A stretch of 64,000 nucleotides of DNA from the NCBI GenBank assembly GCA_019057385.1, contig JAHQJS010000007.1:779685-843684 (forward strand). The letters are read 5' to 3'. The position numbers and the translations under genes are program-made. Under the pieces are notes generated by a model that did no database searches, was not told the DNA's origin, and saw nothing but the letters and a program-made list of their open reading frames with translations. Below are positions 8,374 through 42,996 of the stretch, piece by piece. The stretch is from Candidatus Borrarchaeum weybense (GTDB taxonomy: Archaea; Asgardarchaeota; Sifarchaeia; Borrarchaeales; Borrarchaeaceae). How positions within the stretch are numbered: position 1 is the stretch's first letter; the number at the start of each line of letters is the position of its first letter.

Positions 8374-8659
8374 AAATAAAGTGATCCCTCATTTTTAGAC
8401 CTCTTTCGAGAAACTGGACTGAGTGTATAAAAAACTTTGGCTAAAAATTGTTGACCATGTTTACCTTTGACTACCTTTGTTTACGTAAATGGCAAGATTT
8501 TTAAGGAGACATATTATCTTTGATAAAAAAATATCATCAAAAAATACAGAAAAGAAGAGCATATTTTTACAAATGTCAAATTATTCTGAGTATTTTCATT
8601 CCTTCGTAAAGTGAGATCAGATTATTTCCAAAATTAAAAAGTTACAGATTAAGGAAAAG

Positions 8660-10387
8660 GTGAAAACGATTCAATTAGAAGCCATTGAGGAAACACAAAC
8701 AGATTCACCAGAATCGAAAGAGAGTATCATCCAAAATATGGAGGATATATGTAAAAGAATCGATCTAAATCGAGTTAGAAAAACAATTGAAGAATTATTT
8801 AATCAACCAAATGTTGCACATATTTCACCTGAACAAATCAAAGTAAAAGCAGAAGTATGTGGTAGAAAAACGAAATACCGTAATTACAATTTTATCTCTG
8901 CTGTAAAAAATCGGTCAGCCGGTCTTACGGTTTATCTTGGTAGTGCGGATGTGATTCAATCCGAATTAACTCCAAAACAGAGAGAAATATTAGCTCATGC
9001 TCCTGAAACGATTGATACTGTGTTAAAATATCTGCAGAAAGCACCGTTATTGTGTAACGTCAGAACTATGGGAAATAATCCAGAATTCACACCGACTTGT
9101 ACTCTTTATGTTTCTTTAGCTCGACCAGATTCCGTACGATTAGCTCACATGATGAACGGATCTTTGTTTGAAAATAGAGAAATGAAACCTCCGAGTCTGT
9201 ATATAATAGATCTTCCAGAATGGCATGAGAAAGATAGACAAGTAATTTGTCTACCTGAGATTGGCGTGACCTTCGTTTTAGGATCCGATTATTTTGGTGA
9301 AGTTAAGAAAGGGTTTTTGCGAATGGCTATGTGGTATGCCAAACAAAAGGGAATGCTAGGACTTCATGCAGGCGCGAAGTTAATAAAGGCGAGAGATCAC
9401 AAGACAGGAAGAATTAATAGATTTAATATGCTTATTTTTGGTTTAACCGCTACGGGCAAGACAACACATTCCTGCCATACACATGACTTGAATGAGCTTG
9501 GAGAAGGCATTGAGATAGCGCAGGATGATTTTGTCGCTGTAAAAAAAGATGGGTCAGTATTGGGAACTGAATGTGGCTTTTTCCTTAAAACAGAGGGGCT
9601 TACCTTACAGGATCAACCTTTGCTTTACAATGCGCTTATAAAGCCTCATACGACACTTGAAAATGTTTTAATTGATTATTTTGATGATGTTGATTTCTTA
9701 GACAACACTATCACAGGGAATGGACGCGCAGTAATCTTAAGGGAGGATTTAGATAAAGATTATATTAGTTCAGAAATCAACTTACCACCGCTTTCGAACG
9801 TTGATGGTGTGATCATACTGATGATCACTAGACGAAATACAGTAGTTCCAATCGTCTCAAAATTAAATGTAGAACAAACTGCTGCCGTTTTCATGCTTGG
9901 TGAATCAATAGAAACTTCTGGAAGTAATCCAGAAAGGGCTGGTGAATCTATTAGAGAAGTAGGGACAAACCCTTTCATAATCGGCAACAAGGCCGAAGAA
10001 GGCAATCGATTCTATGATATCCTCAAAAAATACCCAGGTAAAATCCATTGTTACTTAGCCAACACAGGTGGCGTAGGTGAAATAATGGAAAAAGATGCAA
10101 ACGGGAAGAAGATAATAAAACAAAAAGTATTGCGCGTCGAAATTTCAGAAATGGCAGCAATAATTCGAGGAATTGCAAGAAATTCCATTGAATGGGAAGA
10201 TGAACCATATTTCGGAGTTCAAGTACCCAAAAATGTACCAGACATTGATATTCGGAAATTTAATTTAGAACGATTTTACGCCAAAGAGCAGATTCTCACT
10301 TTAGTTCAAAATTTAAAACGAGAAAGGAAGAAATATATAGAGAAATTTCCAGAGCTTTACGAACAAATTAAAAACGCATTTATATAG
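8660..10387 (+). CDS. pckA: Phosphoenolpyruvate carboxykinase (ATP-type fold)
   Basis: YFGEVKKG, LHAG, GLTATGKTT P-loop, QDD, LENV, NGRA, GTNPF, NTG. Confidence 0.88.
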   Translation: MKTIQLEAIEETQTDSPESKESIIQNMEDICKRIDLNRVRKTIEELFNQPNVAHISPEQIKVKAEVCGRKTKYRNYNFISAVKNRSAGLTVYLGSADVIQSELTPKQREILAHAPETIDTVLKYLQKAPLLCNVRTMGNNPEFTPTCTLYVSLARPDSVRLAHMMNGSLFENREMKPPSLYIIDLPEWHEKDRQVICLPEIGVTFVLGSDYFGEVKKGFLRMAMWYAKQKGMLGLHAGAKLIKARDHKTGRINRFNMLIFGLTATGKTTHSCHTHDLNELGEGIEIAQDDFVAVKKDGSVLGTECGFFLKTEGLTLQDQPLLYNALIKPHTTLENVLIDYFDDVDFLDNTITGNGRAVILREDLDKDYISSEINLPPLSNVDGVIILMITRRNTVVPIVSKLNVEQTAAVFMLGESIETSGSNPERAGESIREVGTNPFIIGNKAEEGNRFYDILKKYPGKIHCYLANTGGVGEIMEKDANGKKIIKQKVLRVEISEMAAIIRGIARNSIEWEDEPYFGVQVPKNVPDIDIRKFNLERFYAKEQILTLVQNLKRERKKYIEKFPELYEQIKNAFI

Positions 10388-10543
10388 AAGGAAAATATTT
10401 TTCGCCCTTATTCAGGCGTCCATTTTTTTCTAATATTTGATACTTGTGCTGCTTTTCAATATTGTATCCATAAGTATACCGCAGTATACCGATTAATTCC
10501 CTTAAATTGGTATCTTATAGGATAGTTCCAATTTAGGATTAAC

Positions 10544-11398
10544 TCAGTCTTTTAAATGTTCAATGACATAATCTAGTATTAGTTCTGGAATTTCAACGAA
10601 AGTTGTTTCCATCAATCCTTTAAATTCTACTGTATGGTTGATCTCATTGACAACTAATCCTTCTTTATCTTCCAATAGATCAACGCCAAGAATTCCGCCT
10701 CCAACAACTTTCGCAGCCTTTAAACTCAATTCTTTAATCTCTGGAGTAATTTCGCAAATCTTTGCTGTGCCACCTCTCGCAATATTTGTCCGCCAGTCGC
10801 CACCATTTGCTTTTCTATACATAGCAGCAACCACATCATCTCCGATAACAAAAGCCCTGATATCTCTTTTTGAGGGAACCTTTTCCTGAATATAATGAAT
10901 TTTATGAAGTGGTCCTAACATTTCTTTATGCTCTATAACTGATGTTGCTACGATTTCATCGTTAATCAAAGAAACGAGACGCCCCCAAGAGCCTACTAAA
11001 GGCTTAATAACAGCAGGATAACCTACATCATTCAAGGATTCAAGAGCAGAATCTTCTGCGAATGACACCAAAGTTTTTGGAGTTGGGATATTTGCTTTTG
11101 TTAACGCTAAAGTTGTCAAGAGTTTATTACCACAGGTTTGTGCTGTTTCAAAGGAATTGATGACATGTAATCCTTTGTTTTCAAGGATTGCTGATAGATA
11201 TAACCCTCTAAAATAACTTACGCTTCTTTGGAGTAAAACATCATATTCCTGTAAATCCGAATTACAATCGGTTGCCGTTAGAGAGAGCCTTTTGGCATCA
11301 ATCAAGTTCAAATCTATTTTTTTCTTCGCTGCAGCCTTTACAAGTTGCTTTTCATTCCAGCTAATTCTATCATATATTAATCCAATTTTCAGTTTCAA
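10544..11398 (-). CDS. argX: LysX/ArgX-family ATP-grasp LysW ligase, ArgX-like
   Basis: KPLVGSWGRLV, RDIR, WRTNIARGG, NEINHTVEFKGL. EFKG and WR.N(I/V) resemble glutamate-specific ArgX more than the EFKN/WITNT of LysX (recalled signatures). Preceded by an Arg-rich leader. Confidence 0.78.
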   Translation of the reverse strand: MKLKIGLIYDRISWNEKQLVKAAAKKKIDLNLIDAKRLSLTATDCNSDLQEYDVLLQRSVSYFRGLYLSAILENKGLHVINSFETAQTCGNKLLTTLALTKANIPTPKTLVSFAEDSALESLNDVGYPAVIKPLVGSWGRLVSLINDEIVATSVIEHKEMLGPLHKIHYIQEKVPSKRDIRAFVIGDDVVAAMYRKANGGDWRTNIARGGTAKICEITPEIKELSLKAAKVVGGGILGVDLLEDKEGLVVNEINHTVEFKGLMETTFVEIPELILDYVIEHLKD

Positions 11399-11625
11399 AA
11401 CCCCCTTTAGAGGTATTAAATCAAAAAACTTCCAAGAGGGTCGTTAATAGGTGAAAGAACGAATTTTAGAACAACTACAGAGCCCACATGATTTGACTCT
11501 ATAAGATTTATCTAAAACAAGTCTTGGCTTACACGAGTTGAAACCAAGTTTTCAACTTTAGCCTATTAACGACGATTTTCCAATGCAAATTTTTTTCATC
11601 GTCGTCGTCGTCGTCGTCGGATCCC
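11399..11625 (-). promoter_or_regulatory. Putative attenuator RNA with alternative pairings between the leader ORF and argX
   Basis: mRNA GACGACGAU (last Arg codons) pairs with AUCGUCGUU (11568-11576). GUCGUUAAUAGG (11562-11573) pairs perfectly (12 bp) with CCUAUUAACGAC (11440-11451). GACCCUCUU (11434-11442) can pair with AAGGGGGUU before the argX start. Internal hairpin AGUUGAAA-ACUUGG-UUUCAACU; U6 tract near 11423-11428. Confidence 0.7.
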
Positions 11626-11691
11626 CACATCTAAAACAAGATATTCGTTTTCAAAAACAGAGTTTCCCATAAAAACTTCATCATAATCCAT
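11596..11691 (-). CDS. Putative arginine leader peptide MDYDEVFMGNSVFENEYLVLDVGIRRRRRRR
   Basis: ATG at 11691 with SD GAGGTG 7 nt upstream; seven consecutive CGA codons immediately before TGA; ~200 nt upstream of the argX-like gene on the same strand. Confidence 0.8.
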   Translation of the reverse strand: MDYDEVFMGNSVFENEYLVLDVGIRRRRRRR

Positions 11692-11848
11692 ATAATCCAC
11701 CTCTAGATCCGACTTTTTATTTTGTTGCACATTGCTCTTATGGTTTTTAAGATTTTTGTTTTTGTATATTTAGTGTGAAGTTCAATACAGCAAAAAAATG
11801 AAAAAAATCAAGATTTGGATTGAGTCATATCAAAAAGTGAAGAAAAAG

Positions 11849-13111
11849 TTAAGTTGGAGTCCAATTTTTCATTGCTCTTCGAAACATTTTATTTAGATCG
11901 TCTTCTTTAATAGGAACCGGATTTAAATAGAGTAATCGTTGTATTTTGAACGTATCTGCGGCTAAACGAGCAATATATTCTTCCTTTACGTTAAATGGTG
12001 GCGCTTCAAGGCCATATGGAATTCCAATATCCTTTGATAATTGAATAATTGCGTTTACGCTTTTTTGTGCAGCATCCATAAGCGAAAGATCTTTCACATT
12101 TTCACCTAGTAACTGGGCTATACGTGCAAAACGCTCTGGTGCACCTGGTATATTGAATTCCACAACTGCAGGAAGTATTACAGCGTTAGTAATGCCGTGT
12201 GGTGTATGCCATTGACCCCCCACGGGATAAGCCATGGCATGAACAGTACAAACTCCCGCGTTTGTGAACGCTGCACCAGCTAGGAACGACGCTAATAACA
12301 TGCCACTCCTTGCCTCTAGGTTGTTACCATTATTAACAGCTAGACGTAAGTACTTTCCAATTAGTTCGATAGACTTTTCGGCAAATATATCCGTTAGTTC
12401 AGTTGAGCCCGTAAAAACAGGTCTTTCTGGTGGAGTTGCTGGCTTGGGTCGTGTCGTATATGGTCTAACGAAATATGCTTCAATGGCGTGAACAAGGGCA
12501 TCCATGCCTGTTGCTGCTGTAATGGAGGGGGGCATCGTAATGGTCAACAGAGGATCTAAAATCCCAAGTGTGGGTCTGCCACAGAATAGTGCCCCCTTTA
12601 CTAATTTTTCTGGGAAAGTTATAACTGAAGAAGGAGAGGTCTCACTACCGGTTCCTGCAGTAGTAGGAACAGCTATCAGTGGTTTAAATGGTCCTGGAAT
12701 TTTTTTTCCTTCGCCAAAAGGTGCTGGCATGTAGTCGAGAATTTTGCCACCGTGTGTGAGCACTAAAGCAATTACTTTAGCTGAATCTATAGCACTTCCA
12801 CCACCCAAAGCTACAAATCCATCAAAATTACTATCTTTAAAGTTGTCAATACAGTCTTGCATAGATTTTAACGAAGGTTCTGGTTCCACTTTGTCCCAGA
12901 CCGTAAAAGTGATATTTTGCTCTTTAATAGGTTGCACAATTTTGTCAACAAGACCAATTTTAACCATTACAGAATCAGTCACGATAAGACAATTCTCTAT
13001 TCCTAATTTTTTTAGATCCCAACCAATTTCCGATGCAACATCTAGTCCAAATTTGATATTAGACATAGCAAATTGCCAGGCAGTATCTATTGGTAAGCTA
13101 TCTATCGGCAT
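11849..13111 (-). CDS. Iron-containing alcohol dehydrogenase / hydroxyacid-oxoacid transhydrogenase-like, paralog 1
   Basis: GGGSAIDSAK, PTTAGTGSET, GMDALVHAIEAY, HAMAY..HG. Confidence 0.9.
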   Translation of the reverse strand: MPIDSLPIDTAWQFAMSNIKFGLDVASEIGWDLKKLGIENCLIVTDSVMVKIGLVDKIVQPIKEQNITFTVWDKVEPEPSLKSMQDCIDNFKDSNFDGFVALGGGSAIDSAKVIALVLTHGGKILDYMPAPFGEGKKIPGPFKPLIAVPTTAGTGSETSPSSVITFPEKLVKGALFCGRPTLGILDPLLTITMPPSITAATGMDALVHAIEAYFVRPYTTRPKPATPPERPVFTGSTELTDIFAEKSIELIGKYLRLAVNNGNNLEARSGMLLASFLAGAAFTNAGVCTVHAMAYPVGGQWHTPHGITNAVILPAVVEFNIPGAPERFARIAQLLGENVKDLSLMDAAQKSVNAIIQLSKDIGIPYGLEAPPFNVKEEYIARLAADTFKIQRLLYLNPVPIKEDDLNKMFRRAMKNWTPT

Positions 13112-41265: not shown

Positions 41266-41724
41266 ATGTCCCTTGAAGTAGAGGAAGATGAGGACGAATT
41301 CAGAGTGAATTACAATAACAATGTGATGCATTTTCCCAAGCATATATATTATACAGAACAAGATTTGTGGATGAGAGTAGGGGAGGTTAGCGGAATTGCA
41401 ACAGTTGGGCTAACTGACTATTCTTTATTATTACTTAGTGAAATTACTTCTTTAGAAATTAAAACAGATCCTGATACTGTTGTTTCGCCCATGGAAGAGA
41501 TCGGTTTTATAAAATCAAATAAAACTGAATTGAAAATATTTCCACCTGTTTCAGGAAAAATAATTGCCATAAATAGCAGGCTTAAAGATCAACCAAATGT
41601 AGGACGAGACAATTATGAGAGAGGATGGCTGTTCAAAATAAGTCCAAGTGAACTAGATTCGGAACTTCGTGATTTGTGCATTAATGCGAAATACTATGTT
41701 AAAGTCTTGCAAGAACGTTTGTAA
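41266..41724 (+). CDS. Glycine cleavage H-like lipoyl-carrier protein (divergent)
   Basis: YYTEQDLW, TVGLTDY, IKSNK (lipoyl-Lys position), PVSGKI..IN, YERGWLFKI; the stop codon comes from the IS right end. Confidence 0.8.
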   Translation: MSLEVEEDEDEFRVNYNNNVMHFPKHIYYTEQDLWMRVGEVSGIATVGLTDYSLLLLSEITSLEIKTDPDTVVSPMEEIGFIKSNKTELKIFPPVSGKIIAINSRLKDQPNVGRDNYERGWLFKISPSELDSELRDLCINAKYYVKVLQERL

Positions 41725-42996
41725 ACTACCTCACGTTAAAGCTGTGAGGCTTTTAGCTGTACTTAGTTTCAGTCCCCTTCTGTGCAGAAGAGTTTCAACC
41801 TCATCGCACGCTAACACATGGGCGTGTTTACCACAGCCCAGCCCAGTAATCCGCATGTAGCGTCGGGCTATATTTCGTGCACCGTTTAAATCGGAATTCA
41901 GGGTATGACAACAGGTACGACATACAAAGAAGCCACGATGGCGGGAGGTGTTCCGGCTATGACAACGATTGCATTCCTTACTGGTATAGTGGGGGCGAAC
42001 ATAGACTACCCTGACGCCTTTCAGGGTCGCTTTGTACTCCAAAAAGCGTTGCAGTTCCCGGAAGGCCCATTTATGTACCCACCTGTTATATTTAGCTGTC
42101 TTCCTGATGTAGGTCAGTTCCTCCATCACCAGCACGTCGCCTTCGGACAGTTTCTCCACAATTCGCTTGGAGATGTTGTGGTTGACCCAGGTCATAAACC
42201 GTTTCCACGCGCCACTCACGCGTTGTAGTTTGCGTTTCGCGGCACGTGTGCCTTTAGACTGGAGTTCCGCCACCAAGCGCTCCCAGCGGATCCGTTGCTG
42301 TTTGACACTACCGAAGAACTCGGCGTCACTGGTTACTGCCAGCGTATTGACTCCTAAATCGACACCCAGTATTTTGCAGTGGTTGGTAGCTGTTGGCTGG
42401 AGGGTGGTCTCTTTGGAAAAGGTAAAGCAGAAGAAAAACCGCCCTTTGTAGTCCTTGATCAGGGTGCTCTCGCCCAGTTTCCAGGCCAGATAGGGCTCAA
42501 ATACTTCCGGAATCACTACTTGGAATCTGACACGCCCCTTAAGAGTTGACAATGAGAGACACGTCCAGTCTTTGGATACAGAGGCACAGCGCGGGAAATT
42601 ATACCTGATCGCCAGTTCTGGGGAGACTTCTGGTTTGGATCGCGCCCGTTTGACCATTTCAACCGCCTGAGTAATGGCATTGATCACCAGTTGCGCCTGT
42701 AGACCGAAACGCGCTTTCACCTCATATTAACAGCGTGGTTGCAATGCTGCCTTAGAGGTAATCTGATGTTGCCAGGCGACTTCAATGCAAAATTGGACCG
42801 CCTGCGCATAGACCCGCATGGTGTCATTCAGGACTTCAGAACCCTCAGCCAGTTTAACTTTGGCGGTCACCACCACTTTCATGAGAGAATATTATGAGCG
42901 TAACATTATTTAAAGGCAGAGAGACCCTGCTATAACTGAAACAGTGCCTCAATTCCTCCCCACCCTGAAGGATTGGTGCTTCCTTGAGGCGGAACC
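41721..42996 (-). mobile_element. IS200/IS605-family (tnpB only) element 2
   Basis: Left-end hairpin 3' of TTCAC; right end AAGCCTCACAGCTTTAACGTGAGGTAGTTTAC; higher GC than the host. Confidence 0.88.
41731..42882 (-). pseudogene. tnpB: tnpB with an in-frame TAA at codon 52 (42727-42729)
   Basis: MKVVVTAKVKL...LQPRC*YEVKARFG...; GVDLG, VMEEL, PHYTSKECNRC, SDLNGA otherwise intact. Confidence 0.9.

Follow-up and report, generated by a model that had tools for sequence, protein, structure and literature searches.

A conserved leader open reading frame with alternative RNA pairings upstream of a putative argX gene in the Asgard archaeon Candidatus Borrarchaeum weybense

The genome of the Asgard archaeon Candidatus Borrarchaeum weybense (GenBank assembly GCA_019057385.1; 4.18 Mb in 8 contigs; here G000) contains, upstream of a stand-alone gene for a LysX-family ligase, a short open reading frame (ORF) that ends in a run of arginine (Arg) codons and is followed by RNA segments able to pair in alternative ways. 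This element, which is real, conserved and well defined, lies in a stretch of 64,000 nucleotides (nt) of contig JAHQJS010000007.1, from position 779,685 to 843,684 (hereafter the window; G000:C7:779685-843684; G+C content 37.6%). It is probably a leader that senses the supply of arginine transfer RNA (Arg-tRNA) and controls the ligase, itself probably ArgX, through an ermC-like, mainly translational output; comparison and modelling lend good support to the sensor part of this reading. Coordinates are window positions throughout, and all leader and argX elements are on the minus strand.

Ten further distinct leaders were recovered by searching collections of genomes and metagenomes with the protein as guide and by looking up the encoding contigs. 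They come from a genome of the same genus, from metagenome-assembled genomes (MAGs) and from metagenome contigs, and with the window 11 sequences were aligned. Each carries, about 200 nt upstream of argX, an ORF of 28-31 codons whose translation is predicted; the version in the window has 31 codons (MDYDEVFMGNSVFENEYLVLDVGIRRRRRRR, followed by TGA; 11596-11691), and the frame is open in 11/11 sequences. The ORF is preceded by the Shine-Dalgarno (SD) motif GAGGTG (11698-11703), which is complementary to the 3' end of the 16S ribosomal RNA (rRNA; GAUCACCUCCU). The motif and the ATG start codon are invariant and lie 7 nt apart in all 11 versions, and strong SD motifs in the same genome lie 6-8 nt ahead of start codons. 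At its other end the ORF closes, again in 11/11 sequences, with five to seven in-frame CGA (Arg) codons and an immediately following TGA or TAA. The window has seven such codons (11599-11619), and no other run of CGA in the Arg frame occurs in the 4.18 Mb of the genome.

The stop codon of the ORF is retained across TGA-to-TAA changes, and the only internal insertion or deletion (indel) is an in-frame deletion of 6 nt. Identity at codon positions 1, 2 and 3 is 0.86, 0.82 and 0.86, respectively, and 331 of the 381 codon differences are nonsynonymous, the other 50 being synonymous. Thus, the peptide sequence is not under selection, a pattern typical of regulatory leaders. Searches with the peptide found neither a homolog nor a family. 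CGA is not a rare codon in this genome, where it makes up 18.5% of Arg codons. A tRNA-Arg(UCG) was not located by aragorn in this 100%-complete genome, even in intron mode, and the only tRNA-Arg among the 32 tRNAs found has the anticodon CCU. The CGA decoder was probably missed owing to tRNA introns, most tRNA genes probably carrying non-canonical introns or being split.

Four RNA segments link the end of the ORF to the start of argX. Segment 1 (GACGACGAU; 11606-11598) consists of the last Arg codons (the final 8 nt of the run) and the U of the UGA stop codon, and can form 9 base pairs (bp), one of them G-U, with AUCGUCGUU (11576-11568), a part of segment 2 (AUCGUCGUUAAUAGG; 11562-11576). Segment 2 has an alternative partner: its arm GUCGUUAAUAGG (11573-11562) forms a perfect 12-bp helix with CCUAUUAACGAC (11451-11440), 110 nt away in segment 3 (UCACCUAUUAACGACCCUCUU; 11434-11454). 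Segment 3 comprises the motif UCACCU, the 3' arm of helix 2:3 and a distal anti-SD (GACCCUCUU; 11442-11434). The last of these is the 5' arm of helix 3:4 and pairs with segment 4, the SD-like sequence of argX (AAGGGGGUU; 11399-11407), which can itself form 7 bp (one G-U) with the 16S tail. Segments 2, 3 and 4 are invariant in the 11 sequences. Helix 2:3 encloses an 8-bp hairpin, P2 (AGUUGAAA-loop-UUUCAACU; 11536-11557), whose stem is conserved while its 6-nt loop varies (ACUUGG, AAUAGA, AAUUGA and others), and also a second, long and irregular hairpin, P3 (GUUUUAGA...UAUAGAGUC / GGCUCUGUA...UCUAAAAU; 11463-11518), which is predicted in every fold. Between segments 3 and 4 lies a U6 tract followed by GAUUUA (tract 11423-11428; T6-T7 in 11/11), a candidate archaeal oligo-U termination signal; its position is the loop of helix 3:4 and not the region after it. 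A second, proximal anti-SD, ACCUCU (11409-11414), forms a 6-bp triloop hairpin with GGGGGU. A preliminary description of this DNA, made from the sequence alone, had proposed the 1:2, 2:3 and 3:4 pairings, the 8-bp hairpin and the U6 tract, and all of these were located where it had placed them; P3 is absent from that account. It had also described the pairings as mutually exclusive, which is true of helices 1:2 and 2:3 (6 nt shared), but helices 2:3 and 3:4 overlap by just 3 nt (GAC).

The behavior of these segments was modelled with partition functions for the 11 sequences, from the Arg run to position +30 of argX, and masking of the run by a stalled ribosome was mimicked by constraining it to be single-stranded. 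In the free leader, ten of the sequences give helix 1:2 a probability of 0.72-0.99, helix 2:3 one of at most 0.39 and the pairing of the SD with the distal anti-SD one of 0.68-0.99; the window gives 0.35 for helix 1:2 and 0.42 for the distal pairing of the SD. With the run masked, helix 2:3 reaches at least 0.90 in 11/11 sequences, the median rising from 0.05 to 0.95, which supports the earlier proposal that helix 2:3 forms once segment 1 is covered. At the same time the median probability of the distal 3:4 pairing of the SD falls from 0.98 to 0.11, and the G-run shifts to the proximal ACCUCU-AAA-GGGGGU hairpin (probability 0.43-0.95 in 10/11). In isolation, helix 3:4 has a stability of -13.2 kcal/mol and the proximal hairpin one of -4.8 kcal/mol. 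Control masking gave median probabilities of helix 2:3 of 0.06 for 30 nt of the upstream ORF and 0.03 for the spacer, as against 0.95 for the run; within these models, the effect on the switch is specific to the Arg run. The architecture is predicted to behave like an ermC-type translational attenuator in which relief of the SD is partial.

These elements suggest the following mechanism. Transcription from a promoter some 40 nt ahead of the leader ATG would yield an mRNA with the 28-31-codon ORF as its first cistron, and it would be the translation of this ORF that matters, not the peptide. When Arg-tRNA is ample, ribosomes would pass the five to seven CGA codons and exit at the adjoining stop. 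The run (segment 1) would then pair with segment 2, segment 3 would be free and its CCCUCUU would lock the argX SD in the stable helix 3:4, which is the OFF state. When Arg-tRNA is scarce, a stalled ribosome would occupy the run and segment 2 would enter the 12-bp helix 2:3. The SD would now be held by the weak local hairpin, which an initiating ribosome could open, and ArgX would be made from a CUG codon (ON state). The U6 tract may add a termination component. A more ambitious version of this reading, namely a full four-segment ribosome-stalling attenuator in Asgard archaea, in which Arg-tRNA charging gates ArgX translation from a non-canonical CUG and the 110 unusually conserved nucleotides that separate segment 2 from segment 3 may provide a second input (such as a domain that binds a factor or ligand), comes close to what we would call probable but stays just short of it.

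Comparison of the 11 leaders indicates that the RNA itself is constrained. Helices 1:2, 2:3 and 3:4 are retained in all of them (97-100% of cells paired), and RNAalifold, applied to the alignment, recovers 1:2, P2, the long P3 and 3:4. About 190 nt of near-invariant RNA are common to all versions. From segment 2 to segment 3 the identity is 0.92, equal to that at argX second codon positions, whereas in the same sequences the third codon positions of argX reach 0.71 and the spacer between the leader stop and segment 2 reaches 0.74. Thus, the non-coding core is under strong purifying selection. The spacer behind the stop has also gained or lost 1, 2 and 4 nt among the homologs. The leader fold is more stable than 200/200 dinucleotide shuffles (z = -2.8), and a perfect 12-bp Watson-Crick stem was reached by only 2/300 shuffles. 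The sole compensatory change lies in P3, where a G-C pair is replaced by A-U in one sequence (L074), with a G-U intermediate in another (L075). The leader region is single-copy in the genome, and an origin from a repeat family or a miniature inverted-repeat transposable element (MITE) was ruled out on this ground. No Rfam match was obtained for window positions 10500-12500 on both strands, even at E values up to 1.

The gene behind the leader (10544-11398) encodes an ATP-grasp ligase of the LysX/ArgX family, putatively ArgX, of 284 amino acids; it is monocistronic and convergent with a phosphoenolpyruvate carboxykinase (PEPCK) gene. The protein contains RimK (PF08443) and LysX_preATP_grasp (PF22626) domains, scores 322.5 bits against the LysX equivalog model TIGR02144 (cut-off 275.6) and has 3VPD, 1UC8 and 3VPB as best matches in the PDB. 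Its identity among the homologs at the three codon positions (0.88/0.92/0.71) indicates purifying selection. The gene lies outside the lysWXYZJK cluster, which contains a second ligase copy, 56% identical to that of the window. This cluster (G000 C8:49600-56200; L105:5644-12128) has the order Lrp/AsnC regulator-lysW-lysW-lysX-lysY-lysZ-lysJ-lysK, with two tandem LysW carriers. Genes for argF, argG and argH are present with scores above their cut-offs, and ArgJ and LysA were not found in the 100%-complete assembly. Because ArgJ and LysA were not found and there is one lys cluster, lysine and arginine are probably both made via the LysW route. Ouchi et al. are said to have described, in 2013, a dual LysW-dependent pathway in Sulfolobus with two ligases, LysX and ArgX. 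If both amino acids are made by this route here as well, a second X-type ligase is expected for arginine. ArgX acts at the first committed step of arginine synthesis, at which it attaches glutamate to the LysW carrier. Against chain 3VPB, which we take to be the ArgX of S. tokodaii, the window copy scores 197 bits and the cluster copy 155. On this indirect evidence it is reasonable to regard the window gene provisionally as argX (substrate glutamate) rather than lysX (substrate alpha-aminoadipate).

The start codon of this gene is probably not the annotated one. The preliminary description had remarked on an SD unusually close to the start; the annotated TTG (11398-11396) does follow the G-run by 1-2 nt, but this TTG is not conserved, being replaced in 7/11 loci (by TAG in five, TTT in one and TTA in one). 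Two codons downstream lies an invariant CTG (11390-11392), 7 nt from the SD, which is also the distance of the leader ATG from its own. TTG starts with an SD spacing of 0-1 nt do not occur elsewhere in the genome. Solved LysX/ArgX chains align from residue 4-5 of the query to their own residue 2, and in contigs lacking the TTG, gene callers put the start either 31 codons downstream or 29 codons upstream. Given a variable TTG and an invariant CTG at normal spacing, the annotated TTG is most simply a mis-called start. The sequences thus make CUG the probable start codon of argX, which is unusual in itself.

All versions of the leader were found upstream of one narrow LysX/ArgX clade (at least 86% amino acid identity), and the next LysX relatives are only 55% identical. 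An ortholog of the window ligase with 98% protein identity is present in a MAG of Candidatus Borrarchaeum yapensis. When the leader was compared by BLAST with 400 genomes of the phylum, G000 and its congener G004 were the only ones to give a match. The gene upstream of the unit, on the same strand, is a Fe-alcohol dehydrogenase gene in some lineages and a DUF2461 gene in others. Even so, the conserved block begins at the same place whichever of the two genes precedes it, namely about at a putative archaeal TATA-like box (TCTTAAAAACC; 11742-11752), which may serve as the promoter.

Several findings weigh against an Arg-tRNA-sensing translational attenuator. The element is confined to one genus-level clade, and within it relatives of the G004 type carry a 303-nt mobile insertion between the 5' untranslated region (5'UTR) and the leader SD. 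One metagenome contig (L058, positions 2490-2500) has a 39-nt deletion by which the U6 tract, the proximal anti-SD, the argX SD and the TTG are gone and GACCCUCUU is joined to AACUGAAAAUUGG; the contig may represent a natural variant that has lost the regulation, or the gap may have arisen in assembly. The openness of the ORF is by itself weakly significant: the probability of finding no in-frame stop is 0.48-0.77 per sequence and, on the assumption of independent lineages, about 0.03 at best. The case for the ORF rests instead on four features taken jointly, namely the SD spacing, the ATG, the in-frame Arg run adjoining the stop and the match between the codon run and the pathway of the downstream gene. 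Every Arg codon of the run is CGA, so RNA pairing or slippage, rather than coding meaning, could maintain the run. The assignment of the ligase to ArgX rather than LysX rests partly on the leader itself.

The modelling and the RNA comparison also contain points of this kind. The window's own sequence favors helix 2:3 (0.77) without any masking. The ribosome-binding site is not freed in the models, as the preliminary description had put forward: the distal 3:4 pairing is lost, but the SD moves to the weaker local hairpin and remains mostly paired in the modelled ON state, its unpaired probability rising about ten-fold, to 0.05-0.25 only. In an equilibrium fold of the whole transcript, computed for the window sequence, the change from 1:2 to 2:3 occurs and the SD does not open (0.01 to 0.04). 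The covariation analysis that the preliminary description had suggested found all helices conserved in the 11 sequences but gave the switch helices no covariation support: 34 of the 35 pairs of 1:2, 2:3 and 3:4 never change on both sides, and the covariation counts of both alternative structures were equalled by 161-167 of 500 shuffles. Because these helices never vary, the test has no power and neither supports nor refutes the model; segments that have to fit two partners are expected to be frozen. Finally, the central 110 nt are conserved far beyond the needs of a simple spacer, which hints at another ligand or factor.

Other explanations differ from the attenuator in what they take to be the output or the sensor. 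The same sensor, helix 1:2 against helix 2:3, could act on premature termination or 3'-end formation at U6-GAUUUA (11428-11418), with segment 3, free or sequestered, setting the efficiency of termination or the access of a factor such as aCPSF1/FttA. Archaeal RNA polymerase is known to terminate at oligo-U tracts without a hairpin, the U6-7 tract is conserved in 11/11 sequences, and a T7 tract lies behind the neighboring PEPCK gene; moreover, the U6 is situated 11 nt past the 3' end of helix 2:3, so that the choice between 1:2 and 2:3 would be settled when the polymerase arrives. However, T6 runs are common at 37.6% GC, and conservation of the tract is unspecific because the whole region is conserved. 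No known mechanism couples an upstream helix to archaeal oligo-U termination with the needed polarity, and the double anti-SD arrangement around the argX SD would go unexplained. We regard this output as unlikely. A second alternative dispenses with the ribosome altogether: the RNA of about 190 nt would be an autonomous sensor (a metabolite riboswitch, or a protein- or tRNA-binding element), the CGA repeat a mere pairing partner or tolerated microsatellite and the ORF incidental. The identity of 0.92, which extends over loops and junctions beyond the needs of simple alternative hairpins, would be accounted for, as would a run of CGA only, which fits a constraint at the RNA level; the leader SD could be conserved for its pairing with UCACCU (an 8-bp helix according to RNAalifold), and the openness of the ORF is weakly significant. 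Yet no Rfam family matches at E values up to 1, and an autonomous RNA does not account for an invariant ATG placed optimally behind the SD, a 6-nt deletion that keeps the frame, a run read as Arg in every version, an adjoining stop kept through TGA/TAA variation and the match between codon and pathway. We consider it improbable.

The poly-Arg C-terminus could also act as a nascent chain or peptide and not via tRNA charging, either by polybasic arrest in the ribosomal tunnel, perhaps modulated by arginine as in the fungal arginine attenuator peptide, or as a basic micropeptide. Polybasic tracts slow ribosomes in other systems, and the Arg tail adjoining the stop is the only conserved coding feature of the ORF. 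Arrest peptides, however, have a critical sequence, whereas the remainder of this peptide shows no amino acid constraint, the length of the run varies from 5 to 7 and no homolog or family of the peptide was found; an effector peptide is very unlikely. The least credible explanation is that the sequence has no regulatory function and is chance or recently inherited intergenic DNA, its conservation reflecting the closeness of the genomes. In its favor, the homologs all come from a single narrow clade, with at least 86% identity in ArgX, and none of the other 398 genomes searched in the phylum gave a match to the element. Nevertheless, argX third positions (0.71) and the spacer (0.74) have diverged while the RNA core stands at 0.92, the unit is kept despite a differing upstream gene, and a 12-bp stem is rare by chance.

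The leader contains further pairing elements outside the four segments. In the 5'UTR, segment 0 (GUCGGAUC; 11706-11713) has its complement in GAUCCGAC (11623-11616), which lies at the entrance to the Arg run; the two form a 9-bp helix in the minimum free energy fold, and both arms are conserved among the homologs. The UCACCU of segment 3 (11454-11449) is complementary to the leader SD (AGGUGA), and RNAalifold predicts an 8-bp long-range helix between them (11698-11704 with 11449-11456). It is one of three anti-SD-like motifs within 60 nt.

Other frames of the region and other origins of the leader were examined and rejected. In the Asp frame (an ORF beginning MWGSDDDDDDDE) and in the Thr frame, the downstream frames differ among the homologs and the ATG is lost in several. 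A 23-amino acid ORF in the spacer (GTG...TAA) is disrupted by 1-nt indels in the homologs, and a longer, 44-amino acid version of the leader, starting from a GTG at 11730, meets a stop in sequences of the L059 type. The leader is not a decayed lysW, having no similarity to the two LysW proteins of the genome (shuffle p 0.5-0.9). The other genomic (CGA)n run (C4:1118326) and the CGA runs of other Asgard genomes encode poly-Asp in acidic proteins and are not leaders. A crude genome-wide scan for SD-preceded small ORFs with runs of at least four identical residues gave 16 matches, none of them convincing; one of these, an LLLL ORF, precedes a TnpB gene. No Leu or Ile leader was seen before the neighboring leuA-like gene (window 8374-8660). 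Among Arg/Lys runs upstream of more distant lysX genes, the sole recurring match was RRRLG (L003-L016, L066, L068), which is the +2 frame of the C-terminal EEDWGE tail of LysW and can mimic an Arg-run leader.

Some additional observations were made on the genome. The insert of about 303 nt in the G004-type relatives is a non-coding, MITE-like repeat with ATGAGGT on both flanks (L002:894-1200); copies 80-88% identical to it are present in G000 at C4:1213883-1214190, C8:29203-29513 and C7:356143-356370 and in the window at about 41721-41872. At G000 C4:1118204-1118891, on the minus strand, there are three adjacent tiny ORFs, two of which are very acidic and Trp-rich with (D/E)nW repeats. One acidic ORF has a (GAC)12 tract and ends in ...EDW, and the third encodes a Lys-rich 17-mer. 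The 16S rRNA gene (G000 C5:332567-335232; L106) spans 2,666 nt compared with the 1,478 positions of the model and must therefore include insertions of some 1.2 kb, most likely in the form of one rRNA intron or several.

Among known systems, the ermC and cat translational attenuators of bacteria are close in architecture. They too have a short translated leader ORF and four segments, with 1:2 and 3:4 formed in the OFF state and the downstream SD sequestered in 3:4; when a ribosome stalls on segment 1, helix 2:3 can form and the SD is relieved. The models reproduce this architecture here, with partial relief of the SD. The stall signal in ermC and cat is a drug together with an arrest peptide, whereas here it would be the supply of Arg-tRNA at a codon run. 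Further differences from ermC and cat are the distance of 110 nt between segments 2 and 3, with two conserved hairpins in the interval, the short overlap of helices 2:3 and 3:4 (only 3 nt), the second, weak anti-SD that takes over, and the archaeal host. The bacterial leaders trpL, hisL, pheL, thrL and leuL share with the present one a run of end-product codons that ends a short ORF with its own SD, just before the stop. Leaders of the trp/his type likewise have overlapping 1:2 and 2:3 helices and a biosynthetic gene for a first committed step downstream. In contrast to that type, helix 3:4 is here no intrinsic terminator, as U6 lies within the loop and the stem is followed by no more than 3-4 U (GGGGGUUUUG; in some versions GGGGGUUUAG). 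The classical set has no arginine version, and archaeal polymerase terminates differently. In Sulfolobus two LysX-family ligases share LysW, LysY, LysZ, LysJ and LysK, as is probable for the genome studied here. Regulation of the pathway in Sulfolobus involves the Lrp-type protein regulator LysM, and we know of no leader ORF or RNA switch described on argX.

The nearest arginine-sensing upstream ORF is orf34 of the Salmonella speF leader, in which ribosomes that pause at consecutive Arg codons when arginine is low cause the mRNA to adopt an alternative structure, and translation also affects a structure that sequesters the ribosome-binding site (Ben-Zvi et al. 2019, PMC6386406). This system is bacterial and shares no sequence with the element described here. 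It differs further in having two Arg codons within a conserved peptide domain, in acting through RNase G decay and Rho termination and in its target, ornithine decarboxylase (PMC6386406). Mycobacterial polycysteine attenuators, encoded by leaderless small ORFs, use an amino acid run as a supply sensor for downstream biosynthetic genes (bioRxiv 10.1101/834739). As proposed for the present leader, they are sensors outside the enterobacterial paradigm, but they are leaderless, sense cysteine and have another RNA architecture.

A literature search found no leader-peptide attenuation described in Archaea, Asgard archaea included. Leader-peptide attenuation is a textbook bacterial mechanism, and Asgard archaea are the closest prokaryotic relatives of eukaryotes. 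The mechanism is known from bacteria, and what would be new here is the Asgard host, arginine and the position upstream of ArgX. If the proposed reading is true, this would be the first leader-peptide attenuator documented in Archaea and the first to act on LysW-dependent arginine synthesis, and archaea would couple ribosomes with mRNA folding to sense metabolism, as bacteria do. The leader would also offer a concrete construct, open to mutation, with which to test how translation governs regulation in archaea, the CUG start and the masking of the SD by anti-SD sequences among them, and would serve as a functional marker of which of the two LysX-family ligases is devoted to arginine.

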